Positions 4,805-43,217 of a DNA stretch of 50,192 nt are shown here, one piece after another (position 1 is the first letter of the stretch; every line of letters begins with the position of its first letter). Source of the DNA: an uncultured Methanosarcinaceae archaeon (lineage in GTDB: Archaea > Halobacteriota > Methanosarcinia > Methanosarcinales > Methanosarcinaceae); contig CAVTET010000013.1 of the NCBI GenBank assembly GCA_963733675.1, forward strand, positions 1 to 50,192, read 5' to 3'. The translations under genes and the position numbers were made by a program. The notes under the pieces are model-generated. The model had not been told where the DNA came from. It made no database searches and saw only the letters and a program-made list of their open reading frames with translations.

Positions 4805-4818
4805 TAGTCCTAGATATT

Positions 4819-8344: not shown

Positions 8345-8375
8345 ATGCAGAGTTTTTGCTATAAAACCTATGTAT
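8345..8375. other. 12-7-12 palindromic site
   Basis: ATGCAGAGTTTT-TGCTATA-AAACCTATGTAT. Confidence 0.6.
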
Positions 8376-8974
8376 CAGTGAAAGCAATACAGGAGCTTTA
8401 TCAATACCATAATTAACTATATCTCCTTCTTTTGAAACAAAAAAACCGAGTTATCATTTTTTTCCCGAACTTTGAGTACACCGATTTCTTGTACTTTAAT
8501 ACTTGAAATGTAGGATGATATAAAAAAGAAATAATAATTTCCTGCATATACACTAAAAAGGTGTAGAAATGAAAGCTGGAGTTTTAGTTTCTCATATTCT
8601 GTTATTAACCACAACACTTTTTTTACTTTTCACAATAGTTCCAGCAGCTGAATACAAAATAGTTAATATAGAAGTTAATGCAGAAAATAACGAAGGAAAT
8701 GCTAAAATAGGATTTAATAAAGCTTGAAATGAGCTAAATAATTAAAAAGGGGTTATTACAGTTCCCCTTTATTTTTTGCCGACATTACTTTATGCACTTG
8801 TGGGATTTGGTAAGTTCCATTTAATACCTTGGACCTGGTAGATACATTTTATATATCACATAAAAATTTCCATTGGGTGTGGATAGCCAATTTGATTCTT
8901 TTCTAGAAGGTTCACCGTGTTTGATGTAATGTCCAGGGAACTATCTAGATTTACCATGTAACACATTTTTATAT

Positions 8975-9238
8975 TCAGATTATATAGCTGCCACATCCAC
9001 CGTATCCGATGCCGTAACCGCAGCTGCCATACCAGGGATATCCAAAGCCATAGCCCCAGCCGCCATACCAGGGATATCCAAAGCCGTAACCCCAGCCACC
9101 GTAGCCACCCCAGCCACCGTAGCCGCCATGGCCCCAATGGCCGCCGCCGCGTGCACTAGCTGCAACTGCTGACAAAGATGTTACAAATAAAAATGCCAGT
9201 AAAATGGCAAGTACCTTTTTCATACTGAGTTTCAACAT
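8975..9238 (-). CDS. Small secreted Gly/Tyr/Trp-rich peptide (shared-leader family)
   Basis: AAAGGAGTGGAATAAATG RBS, signal peptide ending AASA, GYGGWG / GFGYPWY repeats. Confidence 0.85.
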   Translation of the reverse strand: MLKLSMKKVLAILLAFLFVTSLSAVAASARGGGHWGHGGYGGWGGYGGWGYGFGYPWYGGWGYGFGYPWYGSCGYGIGYGGCGSYII

Positions 9239-9565
9239 TTATTCCACTCCTTTTATTATATTTATAAGATAATATTTTTAGCCTTATCTTTGAATCATTG
9301 CTCTATCGATTAATAGTGAAACCAAACTTAACCGGCCTGCTAGTAAAAAGACAAGCATCTTTGTTACTGAGCAGCAATCATTAGTAATGTTTTAATTATA
9401 TATAAATATTATTAGATTAATAAAAAAATAAATGTAGAAGAGTTCACGAATGAATCCACACGTTTAAAAAGCGTATTTCTGCATTAAAATGGAAAAAAAT
9501 AAAGCATCAAATACCCTTCAATAAAATTCAAAAATGTAATTAACAACATAATTCCTATAATAACC

Positions 9566-9622
9566 CACCAGCACTACACTAACTGTGACTATGTGCTGAA
9601 CCCTCACACTAACCAATGGATT
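9566..9622 (+). pseudogene. Remnant of a secreted-peptide C-terminus
   Basis: Translates HQHYTNCDYVLNPHTNQWI, matching HGQYYPNCDWILNPYTNQWV of 23560-23883; no leader upstream. Confidence 0.6.
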
Positions 9623-9808
9623 GAAATGCTAATCAATGTGTATAGGCACCTATAATATATTCAAGTTTTAAGACCAGCTCCACTTTCAAGACAATGTTTC
9701 TAAGCATCTATAAATTCCAATTGGCTCTGTATCACTTTACTTCATCAAAAAATAGAATCCAGATCCGACAATTATTATTAACACATCTTATGCTTTTTCG
9801 TTTTCCTG

Positions 9809-9839
9809 ATGCACAGCTTTTGTGTGTAAACCTGTGCAT
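9809..9839. other. 12-7-12 palindromic site at inner edge of giant IR
   Basis: ATGCACAGCTTT-TGTGTGT-AAACCTGTGCAT (11/12 arm symmetry). Confidence 0.7.
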
Positions 9840-10080
9840 TACACTCATTTTTCAGCCAAAATAACCACCTTTCTTGACCTTATTGTGCCGAATATGCGCA
9901 GCTTTTTTTAAAAAATGTTTATTGTTGTGAGTAAAAGAATTTGCTATATTTATCCCAGCTTCAACTAATAAGGAAAAGTTATATAGTTTATGCAATTATA
10001 ATTGTTATTATAAAATTTTTTTGAAAGTTATTAATTTCTATTATCCATAATTTTAACCAATACCAATTGATTTGGTCTCA

Positions 10081-10492
10081 TGAACTGGTGGCAACAATGT
10101 CTCTGTAATTAACACAACAACTAATGCTGTTATAACTATTAATGATCCTAGCTTCAACTCTCCTGATGGAGTTGCAGTCAGCCCGGAAGGAAGAACACAC
10201 GCGGACACCTGGTTATGATGATTATGGCGGTGCTGTAGTCCCTGTAGCCCCCTTACCGGTAATGTCTAGCAGCCAGATGTATGGCAATGTACCTGATGGG
10301 TATGACAGTGAATCCAATGTGTATGCTAGTGGATCTTCTACAACAGAAATACAAAATTCGGAATCAGATGGTCACAAAGCTAAAGCACATTTGAGCAAAC
10401 ATAAACATAAGCACCAACATAAACACCATACAACCAAACAACATAAAACAGAGAAAAAAATACGTAGTATTAAAGTAGATAAAAACAGTTGA
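10081..10492 (+). pseudogene. Internally deleted remnant of a YVTN surface-protein gene
   Basis: GGNNVSVINTTTN fragment, then STTEIQNSES..KAHLSKHKHKH tail matching the C-terminus of 39077-41458. Confidence 0.75.
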
Positions 10493-10564
10493 ATTTCGAG
10501 ATAGGGGATCCACGTATGAAAGCGCTGGATATCCTGTATCCAAATTTTGAAAATGAAACAACAT

Positions 10565-10769
10565 TTGTTTGGAGATAGACACTATTAAAAACAAAAAAAC
10601 AAAATCTACTTGATCAGAATTTCATTTGAATATTTTATAGATAAGTATAAGTATCATATTTATTATATGCTTACGATATGATTTTATTTTATTATAAATA
10701 GTGACTTTATTACAAATGCTTTTTGATTCGTTTGTTTTTTTGTTTTTAATAGTGTCTATCTCCAAACAA
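10565..10769. other. Putative replication origin: perfect 39-bp inverted repeat around a 127-bp AT-rich spacer
   Basis: TTGTTTGGAGATAGACACTATTAAAAACAAAAAAACAAA at 10565-10603, exact reverse complement at 10731-10769, 116 bp upstream of cdc6. Confidence 0.75.
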
Positions 10770-10885
10770 GTAACTTATAATTTTTGTAGTATGAAGTAAT
10801 AGCTAATATTTTTCTTGTTTCTTTGTTTAAAATAGTCATTTATTGTGAAACATTATATAAATACTATTAAAAACAATTTGTCCCT

Positions 10886-12121
10886 ATGATAAATGAACCA
10901 TTAACAAGCTTCGAGCAAATGTTTAAAAAGAAAACGAATCAAATTATTAAGGATGCTTATGTCTTGTCTCTTGATTATCTCCCTACTGCATTAATAGGAA
11001 GGAATGCTGAAGTGAAAAAATTGGTTGAGATGTTCAGTCCATTGGAGTTTAAGGGCTATCCTGCAAATTGTTTTATTTATGGAAAATCTGGATCTGGGAA
11101 AACAGTAACAACGCGATTTTTTATGACTAAGTTATTGGAGATGCTGGAAGAAAGAAAGCACTTAGATCATCCATTAAGATGTGTTTATGTATCCTGTAAA
11201 TCTCACCGTAATTCAAACGCAGTTTTATATGAGATTATTTTACAGATTGATCCGTTAACAGCGATTCCAAGAAAAGGATTTTCTCTTGATTATTATTATT
11301 CTGTGTTATGGGAAATGATAAAAGAAAGAAACATATCTCTTGTAGTGGTTTTAGATGAAATAGATCAGCTAAAACAAACTGATGTTTTATACATGCTTTC
11401 ACGAGCGGGAGAATCTAGACTGTTACCGACTCGTCATTTTATTACTACGGTTGGAGTGTCAAATGACTTACTCTATGATGATAAGTTGGATAGTCGAACT
11501 AAATCATCTATGGGCTTTAAGGATGTAAAGTTTGATCCCTATGATGCCGAACAAATTAGAATGATTCTATATGATAGGGTTAAGTTGGCTTTCTATGAAG
11601 GAGCAATGGCAGAAGAAACAGTGGACTTGTGTGCTGCCATTTCTGCAAGAGTTCATGGTGATGCTAGGCAAGCTATAGATTTGTTAAAGTCTGCAGCCAC
11701 CTATGCTGAAAAGAATGGATTACTTCAGGTTCTCCCTGAACATATAGATAAGGCGTTTGAGATACTAGAAGAAGACACTATATTGTCTTTTGTGGATACA
11801 CTCCCACTTCATGATAAACTCGTTCTGTTGGCTGCTGCAAAACTTATTAATGGTACGAAGGGAACTACTGATTCAGTGAAAGTGATTCAATTATATAATA
11901 AACTCTGCGAAACGATAGAAGAAAAACCACAAGCAAGATCAACTGTTTCAAATAAATTAAGAGAATTCGCCACAATGAATGTTATAAAAGACACACCAAC
12001 GAAAAGGGGAAAAGGGGGTCGTATCGTTCAACTAAATATTGCTCCAAATTCTCTTGAAAACGTTCTTTGCAATGATTACCGGCTTGAAGAACTTGATGAA
12101 TACAGACCGTTAGGTTATTAG
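10886..12121 (+). CDS. cdc6: Cdc6/Orc1 replication initiator
   Basis: Walker A GKSGSGKT, Walker B VVLDEID, sensor-2 GDARQAIDL, C-terminal winged helix. Confidence 0.95.
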   Translation: MINEPLTSFEQMFKKKTNQIIKDAYVLSLDYLPTALIGRNAEVKKLVEMFSPLEFKGYPANCFIYGKSGSGKTVTTRFFMTKLLEMLEERKHLDHPLRCVYVSCKSHRNSNAVLYEIILQIDPLTAIPRKGFSLDYYYSVLWEMIKERNISLVVVLDEIDQLKQTDVLYMLSRAGESRLLPTRHFITTVGVSNDLLYDDKLDSRTKSSMGFKDVKFDPYDAEQIRMILYDRVKLAFYEGAMAEETVDLCAAISARVHGDARQAIDLLKSAATYAEKNGLLQVLPEHIDKAFEILEEDTILSFVDTLPLHDKLVLLAAAKLINGTKGTTDSVKVIQLYNKLCETIEEKPQARSTVSNKLREFATMNVIKDTPTKRGKGGRIVQLNIAPNSLENVLCNDYRLEELDEYRPLGY

Positions 12122-12224
12122 GACATAGAAATTGTCAAAAGTAGATATATTGAATAAAAAATAGTGTGGCTAGTAAAAGGTCATCTAATTAGTGTTTAAT
12201 TGCAATACAATATAACTTGGATTA

Positions 12225-12393
12225 CGGGTCTGAGCGTTGCAAAAATTGACTATTATGGAAATTAAAGTGCATTATGAATCTGGTAGAGAAATACTGTTGG
12301 GATGCACTCACCAACAGTATCTAATTTACTGTATGAGGATTTGTTTGTCTGTTCGACGAAACAATATTTGATTTAATACATTATAAACTTTTT
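12225..12393 (-). ncRNA. Putative sRNA / conserved element, family 2
   Basis: Reverse-complement homolog of 8090-8262 with hairpin ATACTGTTGG...CCAACAGTAT. Confidence 0.45.
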
Positions 12394-12436
12394 CTATAAG
12401 TAGTAGGTATTATAAGTATGAGAGTTGTTTAGGCCA

Positions 12437-12490
12437 ATTATTTCCAAGTGTTCCAGGAGCTCCATATGCTCTATGAGTTCCATAAGTTCC
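12437..12490. repeat. 9-bp-period tandem repeat (x6, inverted copy)
   Basis: Reverse complement reads GGAACTTAT GGAACTCAT AGAGCATAT GGAGCTCCT GGAACACTT GGAAATAAT. Confidence 0.8.
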
Positions 12491-12645
12491 AAGAGTAATA
12501 GCTTAGCAATGTTTTCTTATCACTGATGGAACTTAGGAAATTAGAGATTTTGACATAATTTTATTTTCACTATGTGCATGTTAACAGTATCCATGGCTGT
12601 GCCTTATATACAAGGTGCTCAATGAATTACATCAAATTGTTCGCT

Positions 12646-13325
12646 TTAGAATTGTTCATCTGGGAATTGTCCACCTGGGATTCCGTTTAGGTATTGTTCA
12701 CCTTGGAACAGTCCACCTGGGAATCTTCCGTCTTGGTTTTGTTTACCTGGGTATTGTCCGTTTTGGTTTTGTCCACTTGGGTATTGTCCAGTTTTGTGTT
12801 GTCCAGTTAGCATGGGTTTAGTTTTACCCTGCTGAATAAGAGCTTGATCAATAATTCTTTCAAACCTGTCTTTATTTTCAGCGTTTAATCCAATAATCCT
12901 AGCTTGTGATCTATCTAGAGTACTATTTCCATCGTCATTTATGTAAACGTATTTTCCGTCTTTTGTACCAATAATCACGAAAGCATCAGGAAGGTTGTAC
13001 CCACCAAAATATTTTGCAAGTTCAGGACTCTGATATATATCAATAGACGCGATTGTAGCTTTCCCTTTGTATTCTGCCGCGAGTTTTTCAAGAATAGGTT
13101 TCGTTTGTTGGCATGGTTTACAAGACTGAGCTTTCATCTCTACAAAAACCGGTCCTTTATGCAGAAATGTGTTTATTTGCTCAAGCTGAGTTATTTGCAC
13201 AACACTGTAGTGATCGTACATACTATCGTAAGCATTTACTGCCATTGATGTTACTGATGTTACTAAAAAGATTATCAGTAAAATGCCTAGTATTTTTTTG
13301 TTCTGTCAAAGATTTGTCTATACAT
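12646..13325 (-). CDS. Secreted thioredoxin-fold protein with Gln/Gly pentapeptide tail; leader frameshifted at an A7 run
   Basis: CKPC motif; adding one A at 13293-13299 restores MYRQIFDRTKKILGILLIIFLVTSVTSMAVNA in frame with the 199-aa ORF. Confidence 0.75.
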
Positions 13326-13640
13326 TGTGTACACTTTAAACTTTTTAGCTTTCTTATATTATAACTTTTTTTATCAGATTTTTTATTAAAATACGATCTC
13401 GTCTTTTCTTAGCAAAATCACAAACCGCATTTTTTCAGCATTTCACAGCATTTTTGATTTTATTCCATAGCATATCTATCATTATCCCAAAAATCATCAT
13501 CATCTAGTCATGCATCAGCATTACCAACGTCCAATTAATTGAATTTTTCAAAAAAGGAGGATAGTTTTGGTGGAATTGGTGGTTTAGAGTGTGTACTCAA
13601 AGCTTTAAGTAATCTTAGTGCCAATATCTTTTTAGAGTTT

Positions 13641-14165
13641 ATGAGGATCAAAGTAAGCATAGCTGGACTGGTTTTGATTGATATTGAAGAAAACAATCCA
13701 GATAATTTTACAAAGTTACTTCAATCAATTTCCGAATCATCGGTTACTAAATGTGCTGTGGGAGACAAACTAAAAACTAGTATTCCCACTCCAAAACAGA
13801 CTGGGCCCGAAACAAAAAAGATTGGATTGAATTTTGGCGCAGTTGATCAGGTGACCGCGGATAAGGTGACTACTGACCAGGGAACTGTTGATCTGGAGAC
13901 TGCTGAAAAATGGACCGAAGATATAACTAAATACATCCTGTCCAAAACAAATTATGAGCATGATTTGGGTGAATTAATGGACAATGTGCTTGGGAGACGG
14001 ATTAAAAAGAAAGAAGACCAAAAGTTCTACGACACTTTTCTTAACAAGATTAGACTGGTGCGAAACCGGATCAAACAAAAGGAAAATATTGAGTGGGATT
14101 CTGCCAGAAGGCATTATGGACACGGATCATATCCTTTAATTTACAAAATTAAAAAAATCGAATAA
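13641..14165 (+). CDS. Hypothetical protein
   Basis: Long ORF, first ATG at 13641; co-oriented upstream of the primase-helicase. Confidence 0.6.
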   Translation: MRIKVSIAGLVLIDIEENNPDNFTKLLQSISESSVTKCAVGDKLKTSIPTPKQTGPETKKIGLNFGAVDQVTADKVTTDQGTVDLETAEKWTEDITKYILSKTNYEHDLGELMDNVLGRRIKKKEDQKFYDTFLNKIRLVRNRIKQKENIEWDSARRHYGHGSYPLIYKIKKIE

Positions 14166-14182
14166 TCAATCGTGAATCAATG

Positions 14183-14348
14183 AACGAAAAAGCCTGAGAT
14201 TGTTACCGCAATCTCTAGGCTAGAATTCGTCAAGAGTGCAAATACTCGTAACGATATATTTACTTCAATTAGTACATATCTTTTCTCAGTATTTAAATCT
14301 TAGTGTTAGGTTGTTATTGACGATTTTAGCGCCCAGGCTTTTTCCGTT
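14183..14348. promoter_or_regulatory. Structured intergenic leader (nested inverted repeats)
   Basis: GAAAAAGCCTG/CAGGCTTTTTC, GAGATTG/CAATCTC and GCTAGAATTCGTCAA/TTGACGATTTTAGC pairings. Confidence 0.4.
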
Positions 14349-14366
14349 TGCAAAATTTTATATAAG

Positions 14367-14645
14367 GTGAATTTTATGACAAAAAATATTGCAGAAATGG
14401 AAAAATTTTATCCACCGCTTGAGTATGAGGAGATCGCAATCACTAAAAAACTTTTCAGAATTGCCAGGAAATCAACTGAATCTATACACGATCTTCTGTA
14501 TGTGAAATGGTCTAAAATGGATACGAAAAATGGAGCTGAAAGGTTTCAAAAACTCAGTTCTATAGCTAAAGAAGTCCATAGGTCATTTTTCATAATCACA
14601 GAAAGTGCAAAAGCTTACGAAGCGTTTATGGAAGAGGAGGCCTGA
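14367..14645 (+). CDS. Hypothetical protein
   Basis: 92-aa ORF in the operon-like run before the primase-helicase. Confidence 0.55.
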   Translation: MNFMTKNIAEMEKFYPPLEYEEIAITKKLFRIARKSTESIHDLLYVKWSKMDTKNGAERFQKLSSIAKEVHRSFFIITESAKAYEAFMEEEA

Positions 14646-14869
14646 ATAATGGCCCCGATTCATTTTTTGGTAAATATTTATTCAGAATATGATTCTTTTT
14701 GTGTGAGTAGGTACGTGGGGGTTCAGGTTGTCGAAAGTGCTAAATGATAACGCTTTGCCCTAATAGTGTGACTATTTTTCGATGAGAGTTATGAGGTGAA
14801 AAACGTGAATGTAAGCTCGCTTATCCGCAGGATTCACATATTTGGCAGGGGGAGCAGGAGACTTGGAAA

Positions 14870-17296
14870 ATGGCTATTAATGTAAATGATATGTCTATCA
14901 AAAATGCGGCTAAATACTATGCTTCTTTAGGAGTAATCACGCATCCGTTGCATGGGCCAGATAAAAAGGTTAAAAGCCCTTGCAAACAGCCGATACTCAG
15001 CGAATGGCAAAAACTGGGAATTCCTTTCAGTGATGGAGAGATCGAAAGTAGATATTCTAATGATGGGAATTTGGGATTTATATGCGAAAAAAGATCTGAT
15101 TTAACTGTTTTAGATGTCGATTGGCCTGTTAAAGGAATTTGGGACAATATCTTGAAAGGGGTTGATACAAGCGATTGGGTTAAACAAGATCATACTGGTG
15201 TAAAATGTCATTATTTATTTAGATATTTTGACGATATTAAAGCCAAAACGTATCCTGGGTTGGGATTTGATGTTCTTAGTGACACGATACAGAGAGACCG
15301 GGAAATGGGGGGGCTACAATATATAGGTGGTAATAACTGTGTTGCAGCTCCTTCTACACATCTCGATGGGAATAAGTATCAAATAACTGGAAACATCGAC
15401 AAGCGTCCTGTTATTCCTGGAATAGTGAAAACTCGGATCAATGATGCAATTAAACTTTATAAAGAAATAACTGATAAAATACTCCCAAAATGTAGGCGAT
15501 CATTTCAAAGGTTATATGATGCGCTTTTTATTGACAAAAAACACGAGTTTTATCATAAGACTTCGATTTTTATGGGAGATAAGGAAAATCGGGACAGGCA
15601 TTTACATTTGTGTGCGGAACTGAAAGTAAATGGAGCTACAGATCGGCATCTAGCGCTAATATGTATGATGATATTTGGCGACAGATATGATCCGACTACG
15701 ACAGAAAAAGAGTTACAACAAATTAAACCACTGCCAGCTACAACCGAATCCATTTTAAAAGATCCATATCTCAGTAGGTTCTTTACTGAAAGTGATGGAA
15801 AGACAATAACAGAAAAGCAAGCAAATGGGATATCTAACAAAGGTAAGCCAAAAAAAATAGACGTTCCATTTGACGTGGTGGCAGATAGAATCCAGTGTGA
15901 GTTCCACATTTTCACGATGCGGGATAATAAACAAATATATATTTACTCAAATGGGGTCTACAAAAGCGAAGGGTCTGATGCCATTTTGGACAATCGAGTT
16001 AGGGTTGTACACGATGAAATATATACTGAATATTGGACCCAGAAAAATCCAATGCATGAGCTAACACATATCCCACAAGCAACAACTCGGTACGTCGCTG
16101 AAGTTATCGCATATATTAGGGCGTTCACTTACACTACACGGGAAAGCATTGAAAAAGATCAAAGTAGGTATATAAATCTGAAAAATAAGCTCCTTAATCT
16201 TGAAACGTGGGAATTAGAATCCCACACTCCAGATATAAAATTAATAAGTCAAATCCCCGTAGATCATAACGAAGAAGCAGAATGTCCACTAATTAATAAG
16301 TTTTTCATAGATGTTGTATCAAAGTCTTATGTAGATTTACTATGTGAACTAGCAGGCTATTGTTTAACCACAGACTGTTCTCGTCAGAAAGCATTTTTGT
16401 TATACGGAGATGGCTCTAATGGAAAAAGTGTATTCCTTGCGCTTTTAGAATCGTTTGTAGGTAAAGCTAATACGTCTGCAGAGAGTCTACATAAATTGGA
16501 AAATGACAAATATCGAACTGCCAAGTTATATGGAAAGCTAGTCAATATCTGCAGTGACATTCCCAACTCAAAATTGGAAAAAACAGAAACTTTCAAGAAA
16601 TTGATAAGCGGGCTTGATTTAATCGACGGTGAAAACAAATATCAAGATTCTTTTGTATTTAAAAATACTGCTAAGTTGGTTTTTTCTGCAAATTCTCTAC
16701 CTGAGGTCAAGCGAGACAAGGCTTATTATCGCCGTTGGCAATTGATTCCATTTCCTAACAATTTTGAAGGCGTGACGGCAGACAAACTATTAATTAAAAA
16801 GTTGCAGGCACCAAATGAATTATCTGGTTTTCTGAATTTAGCTCTAGGTGCATTAAAAAGACTAAATCAAAAAGGTGAGTTCACAAACAGTAAATCCATT
16901 GAAGAAACTCAAAAGGAATATGAACTTAATAGTAATCCAATCGCCGCCTTCATGGACCAATGCACAGAACAAGGGAACGTAGACATAGATGCGGTGACAT
17001 TATATGGCATGTATGTTTTATGGGTCAATTATTATGGCAAGAATAAAATTGAGAATAACCAGTTTGCCAAAGAGCTTAAAAAACTTGGATATGAAAATTA
17101 CCGTGAGAATGTGCCAGGATATAACTGTAATAGAAAATCTACTAAGTGGGTTGATATCCGAATCCGTAGTGACATGCAGGACAGGCTAATACCAAAAAAT
17201 GATGATGAAACCGGTCCTATTTATACAGAACTATTGGATGGCGAAAAAACAAACTTGGGACAGGCAGAACAGGCTTTTTTACCATCCCAAACTTAG
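14870..17296 (+). CDS. Prim-Pol primase fused to D5/P4-like SF3 helicase
   Basis: N-terminal NLGFIC...LTVLDVD, HYLF, VAAPSTHLDG; Walker A GDGSNGKS, KLVFSAN, AYYRRW. Confidence 0.92.
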   Translation: MAINVNDMSIKNAAKYYASLGVITHPLHGPDKKVKSPCKQPILSEWQKLGIPFSDGEIESRYSNDGNLGFICEKRSDLTVLDVDWPVKGIWDNILKGVDTSDWVKQDHTGVKCHYLFRYFDDIKAKTYPGLGFDVLSDTIQRDREMGGLQYIGGNNCVAAPSTHLDGNKYQITGNIDKRPVIPGIVKTRINDAIKLYKEITDKILPKCRRSFQRLYDALFIDKKHEFYHKTSIFMGDKENRDRHLHLCAELKVNGATDRHLALICMMIFGDRYDPTTTEKELQQIKPLPATTESILKDPYLSRFFTESDGKTITEKQANGISNKGKPKKIDVPFDVVADRIQCEFHIFTMRDNKQIYIYSNGVYKSEGSDAILDNRVRVVHDEIYTEYWTQKNPMHELTHIPQATTRYVAEVIAYIRAFTYTTRESIEKDQSRYINLKNKLLNLETWELESHTPDIKLISQIPVDHNEEAECPLINKFFIDVVSKSYVDLLCELAGYCLTTDCSRQKAFLLYGDGSNGKSVFLALLESFVGKANTSAESLHKLENDKYRTAKLYGKLVNICSDIPNSKLEKTETFKKLISGLDLIDGENKYQDSFVFKNTAKLVFSANSLPEVKRDKAYYRRWQLIPFPNNFEGVTADKLLIKKLQAPNELSGFLNLALGALKRLNQKGEFTNSKSIEETQKEYELNSNPIAAFMDQCTEQGNVDIDAVTLYGMYVLWVNYYGKNKIENNQFAKELKKLGYENYRENVPGYNCNRKSTKWVDIRIRSDMQDRLIPKNDDETGPIYTELLDGEKTNLGQAEQAFLPSQT

Positions 17297-17486
17297 TATG
17301 ATAATAGCGCACACTCACAATATATAATATATTATAAAGTAAATGAGAGTAAACCAAGCACAAATATCACAATTTCAGAAAACCTGCCAACAAAAGGGAT
17401 CAAGCATGTCCGAACATGTGTTTTTTAGATAACGAGCGCCATAGGACAGGCTTGCAGAACAACCTTGTCAATGTGCCTGTCCTAGA
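17178..17486. repeat. GGACAGGC/GCCTGTCC repeats; putative iterons
   Basis: Copies near 17179, 17257, 17267, 17444 and 17475 across the helicase 3' end. Confidence 0.5.
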
Positions 17487-17727
17487 TCAAAAAGTGATAA
17501 ATTACGAGCAATCTGAAGAAAACAACATTTTAAAAAAAGAGACGAATATCCAGGTATTTAGAACATACTTAAAAAATTTAGTTAAAAATAACTATAATGG
17601 CGTTGTTGAAAGTATCCCTTATTTATAAAACTACTTCAATAGACGTTATCCAGGGTATAACCAGGTATTAGGTTATCAAGATTTGCAAAACGATGCAGAG
17701 AAACTTAATTCGTGGGGCTGGACGTGA
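17416..17727 (+). pseudogene. Small YNGVVE-motif ORF with internal TAA (17626-17628)
   Basis: Continues in frame NYFNRRYPGY...AEKLNSWGWT; homologous to 4484-4804. Confidence 0.5.
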
Positions 17728-17740
17728 TAATCTAATATGC

Positions 17741-17825
17741 AAAAAAGTTGATTTTTGTGAGCTGTAAGGGTGAAATCCCTACAGCTTGATCACTTATCTA
17801 CTCTTGATATTGGGGTGCTGTAGTA
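17741..17825 (-). ncRNA. Putative sRNA, family 1 copy D
   Basis: AAAAGTATATAA promoter, AGCTGTAGGG...CCTTACAGCT hairpin, AATCAACTTTTTT. Confidence 0.55.
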
Positions 17826-18102
17826 AATATAATTAAATTTATTTAATTATATACTTTTATAAATATATTATTCTAATCTAAATGATTTGGTATTAACATT
17901 AGTGGTTCTGATTTCAGAATTATGATAGATGCATCCCTACTAGCAATAATAAATAACTACATCTCAACCCCAAAAGCACGTTTACAATCTCTGTAATAGG
18001 AGAATTGTATTTAATTCCTGAAAATGCCTAGATCGCCCCACAATCGATCCCTGTGTGCTTTATTTAATTGGTTTAGGCGAACAGGCGCACATATAAAATG
18101 TC

Positions 18103-18195
18103 AAAAAAGTTGATCTTGCGAGCTGCAGATGAAGGAAAGCAAATGTCTGCAGCTCGATAGTAGGTATCGTTGCATGAAAGCACTGACACAGTTGA
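18103..18195 (-). ncRNA. Putative sRNA, family 1 copy E
   Basis: CGAGCTGCAGA...TCTGCAGCTCG hairpin, AAGATCAACTTTTTT; 362 bp from copy D. Confidence 0.55.
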
Positions 18196-18884
18196 ATTAT
18201 AAATAAATTTTATTGATTATATATTGTTAGGAATATATTCTCCTAATTTAAACTATTCAGTATTAACATTCTGTAGTCATTATCTCACAAAGTATAAAAG
18301 CTGGAAGCCTTCCTGATACCCAATAAATGACTTAATCTCAGTCTCTGGAGTCTGTTTTAATTTATATTTGATAGTTAAGGTATATGCGGAATTCCCATAT
18401 ACAATATACAAGGGCTATCCTTGATACAGGCCCTTTAGTTGCAATTAATCCTGATACAAAGGCTGATATAGCCTGATACAAGCCAGGTTAGTGGCAACTG
18501 ATGCAGATACATCATGATTCTTATCATCAATTGTTCTTTTACGGAAATACTTCTTCATTAAAACGGTCTCTATTTCATTTTTATCTGCATACAGTAACGT
18601 AAACACAGAATTCTACTATGGTAGATTCGCATCTAGTATCATTTGGCAATAGTTAACTTAACGACAAAGAATATTATAGACTAAACATTGAACCTTCTTT
18701 ATTTATCTCGGAAGGGTAAAACCTAACTTTGAAATCAATTATGCTTTTATATCCCAACTGTCTATAAGACAAAATGTTATCATTTACCATTACCATTGTT
18801 CATTAGTGATTAATTATAAATACTACTAAATCGTATCTAGTAGCGTAGTTTCTTGAAAATTGACAGGCTGGTGGATTGTATAAT

Positions 18885-19109
18885 ATGAAAGGTGGTAAAA
18901 CAAGATTTCAACAGAAATTTACAGAAGATATGTTCTTGAATGCTCTCCAAATTGACAGAATAAGGTCCAGTACAACAATTATGAGTCTAGTAGGATGCAG
19001 CAGGTCTACTGCTAAAAACATGCTTTATAAGCTTGTAAATGAAGGTAAAGTAAATAAAATAGAAATCGAAGGCAACGGTTACGGTTGGCAGAAAGTAAAA
19101 GGTGATTAA
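18885..19109 (+). CDS. Small winged-HTH protein
   Basis: STTIMSLVGCSRSTAKNMLYKLVNEGKV pattern. Confidence 0.7.
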   Translation: MKGGKTRFQQKFTEDMFLNALQIDRIRSSTTIMSLVGCSRSTAKNMLYKLVNEGKVNKIEIEGNGYGWQKVKGD

Positions 19110-19299
19110 AGTGAGTTTGATTGACAGTTACAAACAAGAAATTAATCGTAGGACTAAATTGTAAACATTTAATTGAAAAATTTATCGATTTACTATAGCG
19201 TCTACCGTGCTGCTTTTTGATTTGACTAGAGTCATTTCATTCAAAGGGATCAGTCTGGGAATTAAATCTATCCCTACTTATTTTATTCTAGTGTGATTA

Positions 19300-19425
19300 T
19301 CATTGATCTTTATATTCTTTAAGAGTCGATAGATACTGGTTGATTGAATTTACTGGCGTAATTCCTTCGATTAATTTTTTACCATATACATCGTAAACAT
19401 CTATAGTAATTGTGTCTGTATTCAT
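19300..19425 (-). CDS. 41-aa small protein (MNTDTITIDVYDVYGKKLIEG...)
   Basis: GGGGGTATTGAATG start context; truncated homolog MDTDTILINVYNRYGKKLIL next to sRNA copy A (~2379-2441). Confidence 0.4.
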   Translation of the reverse strand: MNTDTITIDVYDVYGKKLIEGITPVNSINQYLSTLKEYKDQ

Positions 19426-19466
19426 TCAATACCCCCATTATAAGTGATCCATCTGATCTTAGATAC

Positions 19467-19550
19467 CAAAAAGTTGATCTTTGTGAGCTGTAATGGGTAA
19501 AATTCCTACAGCTCGGTCGCATATCTACTTTAGTATTGAAGCTAATACAT
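19467..19550 (-). ncRNA. Putative sRNA, family 1 copy F
   Basis: TATATAA promoter, GAGCTGTA...TACAGCTC hairpin, AAGATCAACTTTTT. Confidence 0.55.
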
Positions 19551-20017
19551 TAATTACCATTAAATTTAATTAATTATATACATTTATGAACCTATAATTC
19601 TAACTCAAATTAATGTAGTATTAACATTACATAGTCCTGATCTCATGCATTATAAAATAGGGAAAGCTATCCATATCCGTCAATAAAAAACTTTATTTCA
19701 GTCTCTATGGCATAAATATAATTTATAACGGCCAAAATTTCTAAACCTACTCAAGAAAATGTCTTAAATTGCTCCAAAATGAATTATTTATGTCTTAATA
19801 ATTCAAAGGCAGGTTATATTAATTGAAAAATAAATCTTATAGTGGTCGAACTATCTAAAATATGAATATATGTGAATATTATATTCGATTTATGTGAAGA
19901 TATATTATTATATATATATATAAATTATTAATTCATATTAATATATATATTTCTTTCACTATTTATATCATAATATTTTTACCTTAGAAAAAATACCTGT
20001 AATAGGGGGGTAAATTA

Positions 20018-20260
20018 ATGATAAGTAAACAAAATTTGTACAAAATAACCATAGCAATAGCTTTAATTTTGATGTTGGTAAGTACTGTAAGTGCATCGAG
20101 ACATGGAAATGGAAATGTAATATTGAAAACCGATTCTTGTACCGGCTTTGTAGATTTCTTAAAATTCCCAGCATGTGGATGCGATGATGACTGCTGTGGA
20201 TGTGGATCTTTCCTGGATCATTGCACAGATCATAAAAATGACAATCGGAATGCTGACTGA
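20018..20260 (+). CDS. Small secreted Cys/Asp-rich peptide
   Basis: YVTN-type signal peptide (MISKQNLYKI...VSA); core contains CGCDDDCCGCG. Confidence 0.7.
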   Translation: MISKQNLYKITIAIALILMLVSTVSASRHGNGNVILKTDSCTGFVDFLKFPACGCDDDCCGCGSFLDHCTDHKNDNRNAD

Positions 20261-28767: not shown

Positions 28768-28776
28768 ATTCTCACC

Positions 28777-31036: not shown

Positions 31037-31303
31037 ATGTTGAAACAATCGTCTAGTAGAATAAAAAGGGTACTGGCTATTTTGCTGATAGTTATTTTTG
31101 TAGTATTAGTGACAGTTGCGACAGTAAGTGCAGCGAAGCAGGTAAAAAAAGGGAACACAGCTGTGGTAAAAAAAGGGAACACAACTGTAGTAAAAACAGG
31201 TGGCCACCACCGTCCACGTGCCCACTACTATCATGGCCATTACTATCCTAACCGTGACTGAGTATGGGGCCCCCACCAGCAACAATGGATATGGAGCTGT
31301 TAA
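31037..31303 (+). pseudogene. Secreted peptide (shared-leader family) with premature TGA at 31259-31261
   Basis: HGHYYPNRD*VWGPHQQQWIWSC aligns with the 23560 C-terminus (TGG>TGA). Confidence 0.75.
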
Positions 31304-31583
31304 TGGTAATGATGAAAAAAACTGTATAAATTAAAAAATGTAACTAAAATGTAGATATGGGTCTTACTGTTTATGTAATTCTACTTAAAATTGTACAAAA
31401 AAAGTTCTATAAGACACTTCATTAAAATAAGAGTAAGATCTTTAACTGCATTAATTTTAGACTGTAATATCCCTAAGTTTTGTAAAACCTGATTGTCTAT
31501 GTCTTCTGTTTCTTTCATCACAAAAAAGCAGGATGCAGAGTCAATTATTATGTTAACAAAGTTCTGTTTTTATCGTTTCATTT

Positions 31584-31614
31584 ATGCATAGTTTTTGTGA
31601 TTAAATCTATGTAC
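31584..31614. other. 12-7-12 palindromic site
   Basis: ATGCATAGTTTT-TGTGATT-AAATCTATGTAC, between convergent genes. Confidence 0.6.
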
Positions 31615-31779
31615 CACATCTTAAGACCGATGTTGTTAAAAATATTTCTAAAGTTTGGAAATAAGTAATATCTTGTAAAACAGATACATAAACTTTTTTA
31701 AGTGAAATTAATACTTTTGATGTGTGAATAATCAACAGTACTTCTCAAACTAATCAGCAGACTAAGAATTCACATAACC

Positions 31780-32259
31780 TTAAAGATCTAATATTTCTTT
31801 TTTCTTTGCTTCATATTCTTCCTTGGTAATTATGCCATCATCACATAATTGTTTATATTTCCTTATTGTATCCGGCCCATCTGAATTTATTACTGGTTGA
31901 GAATAATTTATGATTCTATTTTCGATTTCCAATTTTATTTTTTTGGCAAGATTGTTGTATTTACCACGATTAAAAGGACATAATCCAAATGTAACGGTGT
32001 TTTCGTCATTTTGTATCCCATTAATAGATTCACGTGTAGTTTCGATATTTCCTGGAAGTATGAACTGTATATACCCCATCCAAAGTCCACATTCTTTCAG
32101 TTTTATTCCGGAGATCCGGTTCAAATAAATTGTTTTGTCTCCTTTAACGAACCCAAAATATAATTTTGCGAAAAGGCCCTTCCGTTTGATAATAACTTTG
32201 TCTTTGTAGAGTTCGAGCTGACCATTGTGACCTTTTAGCTCCATTAGCAAATCTTCCAT
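31780..32259 (-). CDS. DUF4429-like protein with C-terminal SHOCT domain
   Basis: KGHNGQLEL...GYIQF...DENTVTF; LCDDGIITKEEYEAKKKEIL. Confidence 0.8.
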   Translation of the reverse strand: MEDLLMELKGHNGQLELYKDKVIIKRKGLFAKLYFGFVKGDKTIYLNRISGIKLKECGLWMGYIQFILPGNIETTRESINGIQNDENTVTFGLCPFNRGKYNNLAKKIKLEIENRIINYSQPVINSDGPDTIRKYKQLCDDGIITKEEYEAKKKEILDL

Positions 32260-32490
32260 ATATTAACCAACTCATCTAATTTCATAAAATATATTTCATT
32301 TAATAGGAATCAATGTTGTTACAAAAATTGTGAAATCAAGAAATAAATAAATCATAGAACTCAAAAGTACTATGAAATATTGAGCAAATGCAGCGCGTGG
32401 TTTTATATACAAAAGAAAAAAAATATATGATCACATTTTTCGAGCTTCCTAATAGGTAAGAGTTCTATTTATTTATCGAGATGATATACA

Positions 32491-32521
32491 ATACATAGAT
32501 TTTAATGTTAAACCTGTGCAT
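32491..32521. other. 12-7-12 palindromic site
   Basis: ATACATAGATTT-TAATGTT-AAACCTGTGCAT. Confidence 0.6.
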
Positions 32522-41458: not shown

Positions 41459-41722
41459 TTAGTTTCCCCCATTTTAAAAAGCAAAGGCAGTGAAATAAAA
41501 TATAACTATTAATATTCCAACTAGTTTATTAATAAAAACTTCTACTAATTTATAGGCAAGTATAGCTATAAAAAACCGTTCAAAAATACAGAAGCAAATG
41601 TTAAATTTAAAAGAATATCCATCGAAAACCAATTAGTTGATGCATTTATTTTAATAAAATCTATGTATTATTATCTGAATTTAACTAAAAAATACCTTAT
41701 AATTTAGTCTGAAAATGATAAA

Positions 41723-41753
41723 ATGCACTGATTTACACACAAAAACTGTGCAT
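41723..41753. other. 12-7-12 palindromic site at inner edge of giant IR
   Basis: ATGCACTGATTT-ACACACA-AAAACTGTGCAT; spacer is the reverse complement of the 9809 spacer. Confidence 0.7.
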
Positions 41754-42323
41754 CAGGAAAACGAAAAAGCATAAGATGTGTTAATAATAATTGTCGGATC
41801 TGGATTCTATTTTTTGATGAAGTAAAGTGATACAGAGCCAATTGGAATTTATAGATGCTTAGAAACATTGTCTTGAAAGTGGAGCTGGTCTTAAAACTTG
41901 AATATATTATAGGTGCCTATACACATTGATTAGCATTTCAATCCATTGGTTAGTGTGAGGGTTCAGCACATAGTCACAGTTAGTGTAGTGCTGGTGGGTT
42001 ATTATAGGAATTATGTTGTTAATTACATTTTTGAATTTTATTGAAGGGTATTTGATGCTTTATTTTTTTCCATTTTAATGCAGAAATACGCTTTTTAAAC
42101 GTGTGGATTCATTCGTGAACTCTTCTACATTTATTTTTTTATTAATCTAATAATATTTATATATAATTAAAACATTACTAATGATTGCTGCTCAGTAACA
42201 AAGATGCTTGTCTTTTTACTAGCAGGCCGGTTAAGTTTGGTTTCACTATTAATCGATAGAGCAATGATTCAAAGATAAGGCTAAAAATATTATCTTATAA
42301 ATATAATAAAAGGAGTGGAATAA

Positions 42324-42587
42324 ATGTTGAAACTCAGTATGAAAAAGGTACTTGCCATTTTACTGGCATTTTTATTTGTAACATCTTTGTCAGCAGTTGC
42401 AGCTAGTGCACGCGGCGGCGGCCATTGGGGCCATGGCGGCTACGGTGGCTGGGGTGGCTACGGTGGCTGGGGTTACGGCTTTGGATATCCCTGGTATGGC
42501 GGCTGGGGCTATGGCTTTGGATATCCCTGGTATGGCAGCTGCGGTTACGGCATCGGATACGGTGGATGTGGCAGCTATATAATCTGA
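42324..42587 (+). CDS. Secreted Gly/Tyr/Trp-rich peptide (IR copy)
   Basis: Identical protein to 8975-9238. Confidence 0.85.
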   Translation: MLKLSMKKVLAILLAFLFVTSLSAVAASARGGGHWGHGGYGGWGGYGGWGYGFGYPWYGGWGYGFGYPWYGSCGYGIGYGGCGSYII

Positions 42588-43186
42588 ATATAAAAATGTG
42601 TTACATGGTAAATCTAGATAGTTCCCTGGACATTACATCAAACACGGTGAACCTTCTAGAAAAGAATCAAATTGGCTATCCACACCCAATGGAAATTTTT
42701 ATGTGATATATAAAATGTATCTACCAGGTCCAAGGTATTAAATGGAACTTACCAAATCCCACAAGTGCATAAAGTAATGTCGGCAAAAAATAAAGGGGAA
42801 CTGTAATAACCCCTTTTTAATTATTTAGCTCATTTCAAGCTTTATTAAATCCTATTTTAGCATTTCCTTCGTTATTTTCTGCATTAACTTCTATATTAAC
42901 TATTTTGTATTCAGCTGCTGGAACTATTGTGAAAAGTAAAAAAAGTGTTGTGGTTAATAACAGAATATGAGAAACTAAAACTCCAGCTTTCATTTCTACA
43001 CCTTTTTAGTGTATATGCAGGAAATTATTATTTCTTTTTTATATCATCCTACATTTCAAGTATTAAAGTACAAGAAATCGGTGTACTCAAAGTTCGGGAA
43101 AAAAATGATAACTCGGTTTTTTTGTTTCAAAAGAAGGAGATATAGTTAATTATGGTATTGATAAAGCTCCTGTATTGCTTTCACTG

Positions 43187-43217
43187 ATACATAGGTTTTA
43201 TAGCAAAAACTCTGCAT
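43187..43217. other. 12-7-12 palindromic site (IR copy of 8345)
   Basis: ATACATAGGTTT-TATAGCA-AAAACTCTGCAT. Confidence 0.6.

Follow-up and report, generated by a model that had tools for sequence, protein, structure and literature searches.

Sites, Modules and a Large Inverted Repeat in the Window

The window analyzed here is the whole contig C13 (50,192 nucleotides) of a peat-soil Methanosarcina genome of 3.9 Mb (G000). It contains a series of 31-bp imperfect palindromic sites, the gene modules and longer stretches that they enclose and a large inverted repeat (Table 1). The longer of the two stretches encodes Orc1/Cdc6 (10886-12121) and a PrimPol/D5-type helicase (14870-17296), while the shorter one encodes a BcrAD_BadFG ATPase, an HGD-D dehydratase, a CGGC protein, CbiM, a PDGLE protein and the products of two signal-peptide genes. 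ORF and Pfam inspection bears out the first-pass annotation of this DNA in that the site-enclosed units carry signal-peptide genes and the SHOCT gene, and that the window is devoid of a recombinase gene, as no C13 match was among those listed by the genome-wide PF00589 and PF01797 searches and none was found by Pfam scans of 20 window ORFs. The Rfam search of the window found no RNA family.

All nine 31-bp sites listed in the first-pass annotation are present. Eight are matched by the consensus ATGCAYAGKTTT-N7-AAAMCTRTGCAT at no more than three mismatches, where 0.00 are expected from 100 shuffles, and that at 22219 is recovered by a weight matrix made from the genome-wide copies, with which it scores 16.3 bits and the other eight score 32.9-43.7 bits. 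Among the degenerate sites listed along with them, those at 9894, 21977 and 41640 are visible, while that at 9454 is very weak. The placement of sites 24128 and 31584 between convergent ORFs is also confirmed by the ORF positions, which are 23560-23883(+) and 24224-24991(-) for the former and 31037-31261(+) and 31780-32259(-) for the latter. Missed previously was the 8.5-kb inverted repeat, whose arms are 99.8% identical over 8498 nt and whose inner end falls inside a site (9809/41723); contig C2 stops at window position 9829, within site 9809. Because the window holds this repeat, site 43187 is the reverse complement of site 8345 and site 41723 is the inverted site 9809. Consequently, all nine sites exist, but only seven of them are independent, and the spacer shared by sites 9809 and 41723, to which attention had been drawn, is a mere product of the duplication.

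Table 1. Coordinates of the sites, modules, stretches and inverted-repeat arms in the window.
Feature	Coordinates	Strand	Remarks
Inverted repeat, left arm	1366..9862 (alignment with 41702..50192); 1366..9840 (arm)	+	99.8% identical to the right arm
Site	8345..8375	+	43.7 bits; polarity >; homology to contig C7 begins exactly at 8345
Module	8376..9808	-	Gly/Trp/Tyr-rich signal-peptide gene 8975-9238; C7 copy 91.7% identical, starting at a C7 site
Site	9809..9839	+	34.5 bits; polarity >; inner end of left arm
Degenerate site	9894..9924	.	Only the left arm is good; lies 85 bp from site 9809
Stretch	9840..22218	+	12.4 kb, plasmid-like, between two co-oriented sites
Decayed site	21977..22008	.	Spacer +1 nt; G044 counterpart (L029 position 4217) 20.9 bits
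Site	22219..22249	+	Degenerate, 16.3 bits; polarity >; G044 and G047 HSPs begin at 22228-22229
Module	22250..24127	+	Two signal-peptide genes: 23063-23422; His/Gly-rich 23560-23883
Site	24128..24158	+	41.1 bits; polarity >; convergent genes on either side
Stretch	24159..30694	.	6.5 kb (genes in text)
Site	30695..30725	+	35.1 bits; polarity >; switch of homology partners
Module	30726..31583	+	Signal-peptide gene 31037-31261
Site	31584..31614	+	35.7 bits; polarity >; convergent genes on either side
Module	31615..32490	-	SHOCT/DUF4429 gene 31780-32259
Site	32491..32521	-	35.5 bits; polarity <; metagenome contigs diverge from the window at 32523
Degenerate site	41640..41668	.	Spacer -2 nt; 84 bp from site 41723
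Inverted repeat, right arm	41702..50192 (alignment with 1366..9862); 41722..50192 (arm)	-	Reaches contig end
Site	41723..41753	-	32.9 bits; polarity <; inverted copy of 9809, inner end of right arm
Site	43187..43217	-	Exact reverse complement of 8345, copied via the inverted repeat

Site Architecture, Polarity and Spacers

The site alignment bears out arms that are conserved at constant total length. Positions 13 (T) and 19 (A) are conserved too, and therefore a 13-5-13 geometry fits the site as well as the 12-7-12 geometry; the center of the site is TTTT-N5-AAAA and the consensus arms are ATRCAYAG...CTRTGYAT. Among 162 sites, mirror positions pair no more than independence predicts (observed vs. 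predicted: 0.45 vs. 0.43 for positions 3/29, 0.35 vs. 0.38 for 6/26, 0.61 vs. 0.61 for 8/24 and 0.17 vs. 0.30 for 9/23). This independence of the arms fits a protein on duplex DNA and not a hairpin.

The sites are directional: the summed log-likelihood ratio of an orientation model is 1433, compared with 759-987 for five controls in which the arms were drawn independently. Neighboring sites in G000 are mostly co-oriented at short range (same vs. opposite orientation: 21 vs. 2 at gaps of up to 1 kb, 42 vs. 11 up to 3 kb and 61 vs. 17 up to 6 kb) but not beyond 6 kb (31 vs. 38), for which reason a replichore-wide polarity of the KOPS or Chi-like kind was rejected. Co-orientation is also found in 80 loci of other genomes (23 vs. 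6 at gaps of up to 3 kb). In the longest array (C1:861290-867184), all eight sites point in one direction, while the ORFs point in both. In oriented sites, T5 is carried by the strand that is read by whichever gene faces the left arm, and such genes point toward the site in 72 cases vs. 34. The T-runs of the sites face incoming transcription.

Sites 22219 and 24128 do have a spacer in common, yet theirs is one of just five such cases among 74 neighboring pairs genome-wide, for which about 2.5 are expected, and as a general rule spacer sharing between neighbors is not above that of random pairs. The mean identity of the central 5 nt is 2.11 for neighbors vs. 2.12 for random pairs, and full identity (5/5) is found in 6.8% of the neighbors vs. 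3.4% of the random pairs (p = 0.098).

Genome-Wide Family and Lineage Distribution

The scan of the genome with a weight matrix, which had been proposed in the first-pass annotation, gave matches far above background: 225 sites of at least 10 bits in G000, compared with 3-9 found with five column-permuted matrices. The scores form a continuum between 10 and 51 bits, and decay is seen in many of the copies. The sites are intergenic, with 4% of them lying within open frames of at least 300 nt vs. 56% of random positions, and 15 arrays, each short (up to eight sites), are scattered across the genome. The units enclosed are genome-wide single-gene units, in agreement with the earlier proposal that the sites bracket cargo, and this cargo includes secreted peptides, a ParE toxin cassette, a rhodanese, a TPR protein and the SHOCT protein; one paralogous family of secreted peptides is encoded in many modules.

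At no more than two mismatches, 106, 95, 51 and 46 copies are found in the genomes of one Methanosarcina clade, 0-15 in 20 other Methanosarcina genomes and none in 12 genomes of other genera; between species of one genus, the number of sites varies by a factor of about ten. Among the genomes compared, the site family is confined to Methanosarcina and expanded in one clade. An exact site match is found on a single viral contig, and a role as viral attachment site was rejected on this ground. A paper on Methanosarcina tandem repeats (PMC6749651) is, in the portions available, unconcerned with the 31-bp sites.

Conserved flank families of 85-190 nt adjoin the sites, which suggests repeated units larger than 31 bp. 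The families are side-specific (family 1 adjoins the right arm in 41/41 cases and family 5 the left arm in 10/10) and combine combinatorially, while 72 of the 225 sites are free of flank families on both sides. Solo half sites in the window are near chance level (six solo among 20 arm matches, with 4.3 matches expected), and accordingly the sites were rejected as terminal inverted repeats of abutting transposons. A MITE would be a defined element with terminal inverted repeats, a target duplication and empty/filled polymorphism; the observations that bear on these criteria are the near-chance level of solo half sites and the absence of any site-only insertion candidate around 154 sites in relatives.

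Homology Boundaries and Moved Modules

Paralogous matches within G000 cover the site and one flank only at 79/225 sites and both flanks at 9/225. In relatives, 59 of 154 sites are end points of homology to G000 and 7 are crossed by it, vs. 28 and 75, respectively, of 295 control positions 350 bp away. The sites are thus end points of homology between paralogous as well as orthologous regions, a role observed directly in the self and between-genome comparisons. Of 105 site-to-site segments, 17 have a paralogue that covers at least 80% of the segment, mostly with 0 bp of homology past the sites. The ParE toxin cassette occurs four times in unrelated contexts, once inverted; all its copies have a site at both ends, and its two bounding sites are co-inherited at 29/31 positions and differ from each other in their centers. 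Similarly, homology of the SHOCT module to its counterpart in genome G044 (L030 7027-7985), which lies in a different context, extends strictly from site to site, and the module at 30726..31583 has a 90% identical copy on a G044 contig whose start falls within the site. Some metagenome contigs diverge from the window right at sites (32523, 41753 and 30711), and a go-back joint (24165>22355) is present as well; both observations are anecdotal and apply to the contig ends listed, and window parts without cover carry no meaning in this comparison. An RNA-library contig spans 31583-31887, although contigs cannot reveal transcript ends.

Other expectations of the first-pass annotation fared less well. 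Homology was expected to break within the 7-bp spacer, but the mismatch profile of 27 independent pairs rises gradually, with no step. In the synteny test that it proposed, no module was seen to be cleanly inserted or deleted at a site: of the 13 collinear indels that distinguish relatives from G000, none ends within 60 bp of one. No clean case of one site here and site-module-site there was found within G000 or between genomes, and the three candidates from a within-genome search for empty sites were all rejected as products of repeat families or self matches. Whenever conservation between genomes extends to the two flanks (7/7 cases), it includes the site, and therefore the comparison gives no sign of recent activity. 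Two rearrangements were rejected as examples of site-driven change. For an inversion of 32.5-38.4 kb relative to genome G031, no site was found at the far end, and the 13 kb missing from genome G047 with the loss of the eight-site array has at its borders not sites but two copies of an 857-bp element, together with an 8-bp target duplication. An 857-bp element is also found on contig C4, 12 bp from a site.

Search for the Enzyme

Tyrosine recombinase genes (PF00589; 13 places in G000) are no nearer to sites than chance: the nearest site is at 475 bp for one and at least 1959 bp away for the other 12, and none of the 13 places is next to one of the 15 arrays. Mobile repeats are very abundant in the genome, which has 70 matches to the Y1 transposase family (PF01797). 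Eight of these lie within 2 kb of sites vs. 10.7 expected (59 of the 70 matches used), and no Y1 transposase gene was found between two sites at the six places nearest to sites that were inspected; identification of the sites as IS200/IS605 or RAYT ends was therefore rejected. A multi-copy tyrosine recombinase of 378 aa has orthologues of at least 84% identity only in the clade with the site expansion. As the enzyme acting on the sites it is a lead only, since its distribution is confounded by relatedness and its gene is part of a different repeat, located at contig ends.

Comparison With Known Systems

Site-bounded gene cassettes are known from bacteria, namely integrons and the dif modules of Acinetobacter. 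According to the portions of PMC13141974 available, the pdif modules of Acinetobacter resemble the units described here in that short two-armed sites with variable spacers bound small accessory modules, including toxin-antitoxin modules, that one and the same module recurs in different surroundings and homology stops at the sites, and that the two sites of one module may differ in spacer; the exchange of dif modules is explicable by fusion at a first site and resolution at a second. In the same source, the pdif site consists of distinct XerC and XerD arms of 11 bp each around a 6-bp spacer and neighboring sites alternate (C/D, D/C), whereas the arms described here are near-identical with a geometry of 12-7-12 or 13-5-13 and neighbors are direct repeats (42 vs. 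11). The present sites also differ in being archaeal, chromosomal and present in about 225 copies. The dif/XerA sites of archaea share with them the archaeal host and an imperfect inverted repeat with arms that one recombinase species could read, but as described in part of PMC11840125 they are 28 bp long (11-6-11), are most conserved at TAA-N6-8-TTA and number one or two per replicon, unlike the approximately 225 copies with a TTTT-N5-AAAA center found here. The Xer/pdif membership suggested in the first-pass annotation is thus unsupported by geometry, by the orientation of neighbors and by the missing TAA-N6-8-TTA core. The pdif modules use XerC/XerD; for the present sites, recombination is proposed from sequence comparison, and an involvement of Xer would be putative.

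Chromosomal integrons carry toxin-antitoxin genes and genes for small proteins that have no known function and are often secreted, and the cargo of the modules described here is similar. As in integrons, single-gene modules lie head-to-tail between imperfect palindromes in one orientation and the genes are more often read toward one side of the site. The attC sites of integrons are 57-141 bp long, variable in length and conserved in their fold, in which R and L boxes are paired; in contrast, the present sites are of constant length (31 bp) and conserved sequence, with no covariation between the arms. The present arrays are also short and scattered with no integrase adjoining, and the ParE cassette takes both of its bounding sites with it. 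Archaeal integrons have reportedly been described in one study.

REP sequences are palindromes of 20-40 bp in more than 100 copies that are intergenic, often 3' of genes, and form mosaics with other motifs (portions of PMC2817692 and PMC3733652), and the present sites are likewise short, extragenic palindromes in more than 100 copies that are combined with conserved motifs. Neither their arms nor their flanks carry the GTAG/CGTC tag by which REPs are defined in the part of PMC3733652 available, no RAYT gene is flanked by site copies at the six places inspected, and neither hairpin covariation nor site-only insertion polymorphism was seen. Furthermore, the present units are gene-separated and co-oriented, rather than clustered and alternating as BIME units are (PMC2817692, in part).

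Interpretation

We tentatively propose, with slightly less than even confidence, that the sites are protein-recognized recombination sites that bound mobile gene modules and that resemble dif modules and integrons but belong to neither. The sites would be duplex-DNA targets of a dimeric sequence-specific protein, most likely a trans-acting site-specific recombinase, in which the two arms of 12-13 bp may each be read independently and the asymmetric center of 5-7 bp may confer direction on the site. Recombination between sites at different places would move or exchange whatever lies between two sites as one piece, and integration at an existing site would create direct repeats and, if repeated, head-to-tail arrays of single-gene modules. 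We infer the involvement of a recombinase, its identity and the position of strand exchange. In favor of the proposal are the abundance of the sites, their independent arms, polarity and co-orientation, the homology boundaries within and between genomes, the moved modules, the end of the inverted repeat inside a site and the expansion in one clade. Against it are the collinear indels, none of which ends at a site, the unshared spacers of neighbors, the gradual mismatch profile, the two co-inherited ParE sites with their different centers, the chance-level proximity of tyrosine recombinase and Y1 transposase genes, the conservation of the site wherever both flanks are conserved and the flank families. 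The earlier reading of the modules as mobilized by a trans-acting recombinase is partly supported, by the abundance of the sites, the bracketing of modules and the homology boundaries, but not in its Xer/pdif membership, spacer sharing or synteny indels.

A different, rather unlikely explanation is that the sites form a REP/BIME-like intergenic repeat, spread in the clade by some enzyme that may since have been lost, retained or tolerated because its copies bind a protein or mark transcript ends, and acting as passive hot spots of rearrangement. The hundreds of intergenic copies, their lineage-specific number, the continuum of scores with many decayed copies, the mosaic-like combination of side-specific flank families, the T-runs facing incoming transcription and an enrichment near gene ends and between convergent genes (27% vs. 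19%) all agree with it, as do the 70 Y1 transposase-family matches and the lack of a recombinase linked to the sites in proximity tests. It conflicts with arms that show no compensatory change and, in their consensus, no GTAG or CGTC tag (as defined in the available part of PMC3733652), with Y1 transposase genes that are neither flanked by two sites (six places inspected) nor enriched nearby, with zero site-only insertion candidates around 154 sites and with co-oriented, gene-spaced neighbors where BIME units are close and alternating (PMC2817692, in part); passive hot spots also leave the array-wide co-orientation unexplained. It is improbable that the sites are favored insertion targets, or safe havens, for several small mobile elements represented by the flank families, each inserting on one side in one orientation so that homology stops at the outer edge where the element ends. 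The strictly one-sided families 1 and 5, homology that often ends at the outer edge and not at the center, the 857-bp element 12 bp from a site on C4 and the richness of the genome in mobile repeats would be expected from such targets. The ParE-type modules with a site at both ends in all copies and the 72 sites without any flank family would not, the flank families have no identified target duplications or terminal repeats, and the purpose of the site itself would be left unexplained.

It is very unlikely that the sites have no role in DNA rearrangement and serve as binding sites of a transcription factor or a chromatin/boundary protein or as a bidirectional transcript-end signal. Independently evolving arms are what a dimeric DNA-binding protein would produce, and the strand bias of T5 with its site-ward genes, the occurrence of one paralogous secreted-peptide family in many modules and the RNA-library contig over 31583-31887, which as a contig cannot show transcript ends, are compatible with this explanation. 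The sites carry about 33 bits of information, however, where by our simple arithmetic about 16 would be enough for 225 sites in 3.9 Mb. In line with the view of the first-pass annotation that they are not promoter operators, they have no constant distance to gene starts (by rough gene calls), and they are depleted within 100 bp upstream of genes (7/107 vs. 309/2355). Nor would such functions account for a copy number that varies about tenfold among sister species of one genus, a co-orientation in the longest array that is independent of gene direction or the homology boundaries at sites. The empty Rfam result for the window also speaks against this explanation.

Significance

To our knowledge, integrons are the only site-bounded cassettes reported so far from archaea, and a keyword search of open-access text, which covers neither subscription journals nor supplementary files, found no published description of a 31-bp site system. 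The 31-bp sites look like a so far undescribed archaeal gene-cassette system. Should the sites be passive, they would constitute a well-documented REP-like family in an archaeon with an unusual co-orientation. It is possible, though we hold it with less than even confidence and below the proposal on the sites themselves, that the peat-soil Methanosarcina clade has its own chromosome-wide cassette system, in which about 200 polar 31-bp sites are used by a single recombinase species and single-gene modules (secreted peptides, toxin-antitoxin pairs, small enzymes and even replication modules of a plasmid-like kind) integrate head-to-tail, trade places among loci and pass from one species to another. 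Such a system would be a functional counterpart of integrons and dif modules, unrelated to them in site and probably in enzyme. If true, the 31-bp site would provide a defined substrate for fishing out a new archaeal recombinase, the system would help to account for the strong mosaicism of peat Methanosarcina and its wealth of small secreted-peptide genes, and a polar, chromosome-wide, lineage-specific set of sites that delimit shuffled modules would represent a new route of gene flux in methanogens.

Site Number and Placement

All nine 31-bp sites that the first-pass annotation listed in the window proved real. The pattern ATGCAYAGKTTT-N7-AAAMCTRTGCAT with at most three mismatches recovers eight of the nine, with a chance expectation of 0 in 100 shuffles, and a weight matrix derived from genome-wide copies finds 9/9, including the ninth at 22219, which is the weakest (16.3 bits). 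Among the degenerate sites reported with them, those at 9894, 21977 and 41640 are visible and that at 9454 is very weak. The window is the entire 50,192-base contig C13 of a 3.92-Mb assembly of 15 contigs, and it carries an inverted repeat missed in the first pass, in which positions 1366-9862 match 41702-50192 (8.5 kb, 99.8% identical) around a 31.9-kb middle part. It follows that site 43187 duplicates 8345 and site 41723 duplicates 9809, so that the nine sites reduce to seven independent ones. The inner end of the inverted repeat falls inside a site: the repeat arms are identical up to site position 8, have a common unusual centre and diverge fully right after the far arm. The 14-kb contig C2 holds a third copy (4260-14081) and stops at window position 9829, inside site 9809. 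Flipping or heterogeneity of the replicon at the inverted repeat is possible, as is an unresolved assembly.

Genome-wide, 150 copies were found with at most four mismatches, while the matrix scan returned 228 positions of at least 10 bits, merging to 225 sites, against 3-9 matches for five column-permuted matrices. In the site logo, about 45 bp form a palindrome in which the TTT(T) and (A)AAA blocks are very strong, positions 3, 6 and 9 vary together with their mirror positions, and the outer T/A runs are weak. Open frames of at least 300 nt contain 4% of the 150 sites vs. 56% of 3000 random positions. By rough gene calls, no preferred distance to gene starts was found, and the sites are rarer in the 100 bp upstream of genes (7/107 vs. 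309/2355) and somewhat commoner between convergent genes (40/147 vs. 564/2966). Gaps between successive sites are shorter than 2 kb in 64 of 213 cases vs. about 23 calculated for random placement, and the genome has 15 runs of at least three sites, the longest with eight sites in 5.9 kb. Full sites paired with weaker ones 84-85 bp away occur at window positions 9809/9894 and 41640/41723, with further 84-bp pairs at C5:246274/246358, C5:247163/247247 and C7:95773/95857; all such pairs lie inside one flank family (cluster 4) and possibly represent a compound site.

Site Polarity and Architecture

An orientation model gave a summed log-likelihood ratio of 1433, compared with 759-987 in five controls, and the oriented consensus is ATRCAYAG-T-TTTT-G-Y-N-W-Y-AAAA-Y-CTRTGYAT. 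Among the 187 of 225 sites that could be oriented confidently, neighbors pointing in the same direction outnumber those in opposite directions by 21 to 2 within 1 kb, 42 to 11 within 3 kb and 61 to 17 within 6 kb, and beyond 6 kb the counts are 31 and 38. All eight sites of the eight-site array point one way, and the ORFs there run both ways. With the same oriented matrix, neighbors in 80 loci of other genomes are co-oriented in 23 cases vs. 6. The polarity is thus real, since it is organized along the genome, and because co-orientation is local it does not represent a replichore-wide signal. On the left-arm side, genes run in the direction of the site in 72 cases vs. 34; on the right-arm side there is no bias (54 vs. 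51).

Across 162 distinct sites, complementarity between mirror arm positions does not exceed the level predicted from independent base frequencies, and at positions 9/23 and 15/17 it falls below that level. Pairs should be preserved if the site folded into a hairpin as RNA or single-stranded DNA, but not necessarily if a dimeric protein binds it as duplex DNA. The lack of covariation argues that the site is not a hairpin, and hence against REP/RAYT-type, IS200-type and RNA-stem explanations.

Flanks, Homology Boundaries and Moved Modules

Conserved flank families of 85-190 nt adjoin many sites, and the five largest account for 150 of 450 sides. They keep to one side of the site (right-arm for family 1 in 41/41, left-arm for family 5 in 10/10) and combine freely across it. 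In flank family 1, runs of 9-bp tandem units (about GTTCCANGA) are found at a distance of 45 nt from many sites, on the right-arm side in every case (41/41), and within the window at 12426-12495 and 44849-44936; such runs are either iteron-like or remnants of Gly-X-Y coding sequence.

Within the source genome, a peat-soil Methanosarcina, a paralogous match covers the site and one flank only at 79 of the 225 sites and passes through both flanks (at least 100 bp) at 9, and per-site match starts and ends peak at both site edges, at 36 sites each. In 89 loci of relatives, homology to this genome stops at 59 of 154 sites and runs through 7; at control positions 350 bp either side of the sites it stops in 28/295 and runs through 75/295. 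A paralogue covers at least 80% of 17 of the 105 site-to-site segments, and most paralogous segment pairs have no homology within 400 bp beyond their bounding sites, which are usually recognizable or decayed in the paralogue too. The ParE cassette has four copies (contigs C1, C12, C3 and C4), one of them inverted, always extending from site to site, with both sites travelling almost whole. The SHOCT module recurs in the related genome G044 with the same two bounding sites and a different context on both sides, and window 20-36 kb is without collinear counterpart in sister genomes, its pieces being scattered and ending at sites. Metagenome contigs provide single, anecdotal examples of divergence exactly at site edges (32523, 41753). 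Others join window 24165 to 22355 (runs X4 and X7) and 24186 to 22376 (run X1); the former joint leads from just past site 24128 back to about 106 nt past site 22219, out of register, and could be a tandem copy, circle or paralogue of the module.

Several direct tests of the recombination reading are negative or neutral. The homology break forms no clean step in the spacer, and site positions 3 and 6 look fast-evolving. None of 13 collinear indels ends at a site (0/13) in the synteny test proposed by the first-pass annotation, and a within-genome search for empty sites found no case. Spacer sharing between neighboring sites, noted for individual pairs in the window, is not general, and the centres of neighbors are not in common. 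This does not exclude the model, because the two sites flanking one dif module also have different spacers, according to the Acinetobacter dif-module paper (PMC13141974). That both sites of the ParE cassette travel almost whole, and that no recombinase is linked to the sites, belongs with these negative or neutral outcomes.

Cargo Between the Sites

Most of the 74 short stretches between sites contain a single gene; the cargo is diverse and includes many small signal-peptide proteins that are Gly-, His-, Trp- or Tyr-rich. Pfam confirmed a rhodanese, a TPR protein and a ParE toxin, the last with a small partner ORF upstream of it, and gave a weak match to SIS; the cargo in the window comprises SHOCT/DUF4429, Orc1/Cdc6, a PrimPol/D5-type helicase, CbiM, HGD-D and BcrAD_BadFG; other inter-site genes are, from their translations, presumably Fic/Doc, TetR, MntP and sensor kinase genes. 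The signal-peptide proteins form a large paralogous family with many loci genome-wide; the signal peptide is conserved (MLKQS..R.KK.LAILL..) and the mature parts are rich in Gly/His/Trp/Tyr. One member adjoins CbiM and PDGLE genes, which suggests that the family may bind metal; a Pfam scan of one member (L021:9266-9571, in a compared stretch) matched no family. Window 9840-22218 is a plasmid- or virus-like replication block between two co-oriented sites, without an integrase. Contigs from RNA library X15 cover both small modules (window 30671-32671), and one of them, 31583-31887, begins at a site edge, such contigs being unable to show transcript ends.

Coordinates of cargo genes in the window and of intact tyrosine recombinase genes elsewhere in the genome
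Feature	Location	Positions	Remark
Signal-peptide family members	window	8975-9238, 23560-23883, 27400-27714, 30000-30329, 31037-31261, 42324-42587	
Orc1/Cdc6	window	10886-12121	in block 9840-22218
PrimPol + D5_N + DUF5906 helicase	window	14870-17296	in block 9840-22218
378-aa tyrosine recombinase	C1	1159553-1160686	intact
378-aa tyrosine recombinase	C3	665344-666477	intact
378-aa tyrosine recombinase	C4	1240-2373	intact
378-aa tyrosine recombinase	C8	329-1462	intact

Recombinases and Other Elements

Comparison of the positions of Y1 transposase and tyrosine recombinase genes with those of the sites found no recombinase linked to them. A 378-aa tyrosine recombinase with a C-terminal zinc-ribbon-like CxxC...CxxC motif has 4 intact copies, 97-100% identical and all near contig ends, and a broken copy at C1:607310. 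Close orthologues of it are confined to the clade in which the sites expanded, a pattern that relatedness by itself would produce. The IS200/IS605 Y1 transposase family has 70 matches in the genome, most with internal stops, and only 42% of random positions fall in open frames of at least 600 nt, which together point to a low coding density with many decayed genes or to assembly indel errors. An element of about 857 bp is present in more than 60 copies with 83-99% identity (e.g., C5:309700-310570 and L021 15481-16318); one instance shows the ends GGTTCCGTTGCAAAAA with a target duplication of 8 bp, and two copies bound the 13 kb that the related genome G047 lacks.

Distribution

Copies with at most two mismatches number 106 in the source genome, 95 in G044, 51 in G031 and 46 in G047, all of one clade, 0-15 in 20 other genomes of the genus and 0 in 12 genomes of other genera of the same order, with 0-1 in a reversed-pattern control. 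When one genome per prokaryote species was scanned with the exact pattern, 96 stretches turned up, and among the 80 listed, 73 are titled Methanosarcina, Methanosarcinaceae or Methanosarcinales; the motif was matched in one viral contig only. The motif is thus an old one in the genus that was amplified in one clade. A keyword search of open-access text found no literature describing the site family, which may possibly appear in supplementary repeat catalogues.

Possible Functions

Tentatively, and at somewhat less than an even chance, we read the sites as recombination sites for site-specific integration and exchange of gene modules, in part as in the first-pass annotation. A polar two-armed duplex site, head-to-tail arrays and site-to-site modules that recur in unrelated contexts are together as this reading predicts, and so are the homology stops within and between genomes and the inverted duplication that ends in a site. 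A circle with one site would integrate into another site and leave direct repeats, while a single module would be exchanged if two molecules fused at one site and then resolved at another, as is proposed for dif modules in PMC13141974. The abundance, mosaic flanks and decay of the sites would fit a REP/BIME-like repeat that serves passively as a hot spot, which we consider unlikely given arms without covariation, the lack of a tag and of a flanked transposase gene, the co-orientation of the sites and the absence of site-only polymorphism.

That the sites are a preferred target for other small elements is improbable: it would account for the side-specific flank families and the breaks at outer site edges, but explains neither the modules with two sites nor the site itself. 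Least probable is that they are pure binding or termination sites, with which the independence of the arms and a T5 run that faces incoming genes would agree; against it stand the excess information, the tenfold copy-number differences within a genus and the homology boundaries. With respect to known systems, the exchange sites proposed here would function most like dif modules and integrons, although they lack defining features of both: they differ from dif modules in arm/spacer geometry and are without alternating orientation or dif core, and unlike integrons they have neither attC structure nor an adjacent integrase. The defining features of REP/RAYT are also absent. We file the sites with the general site-bounded gene modules, here in an archaeal chromosome.
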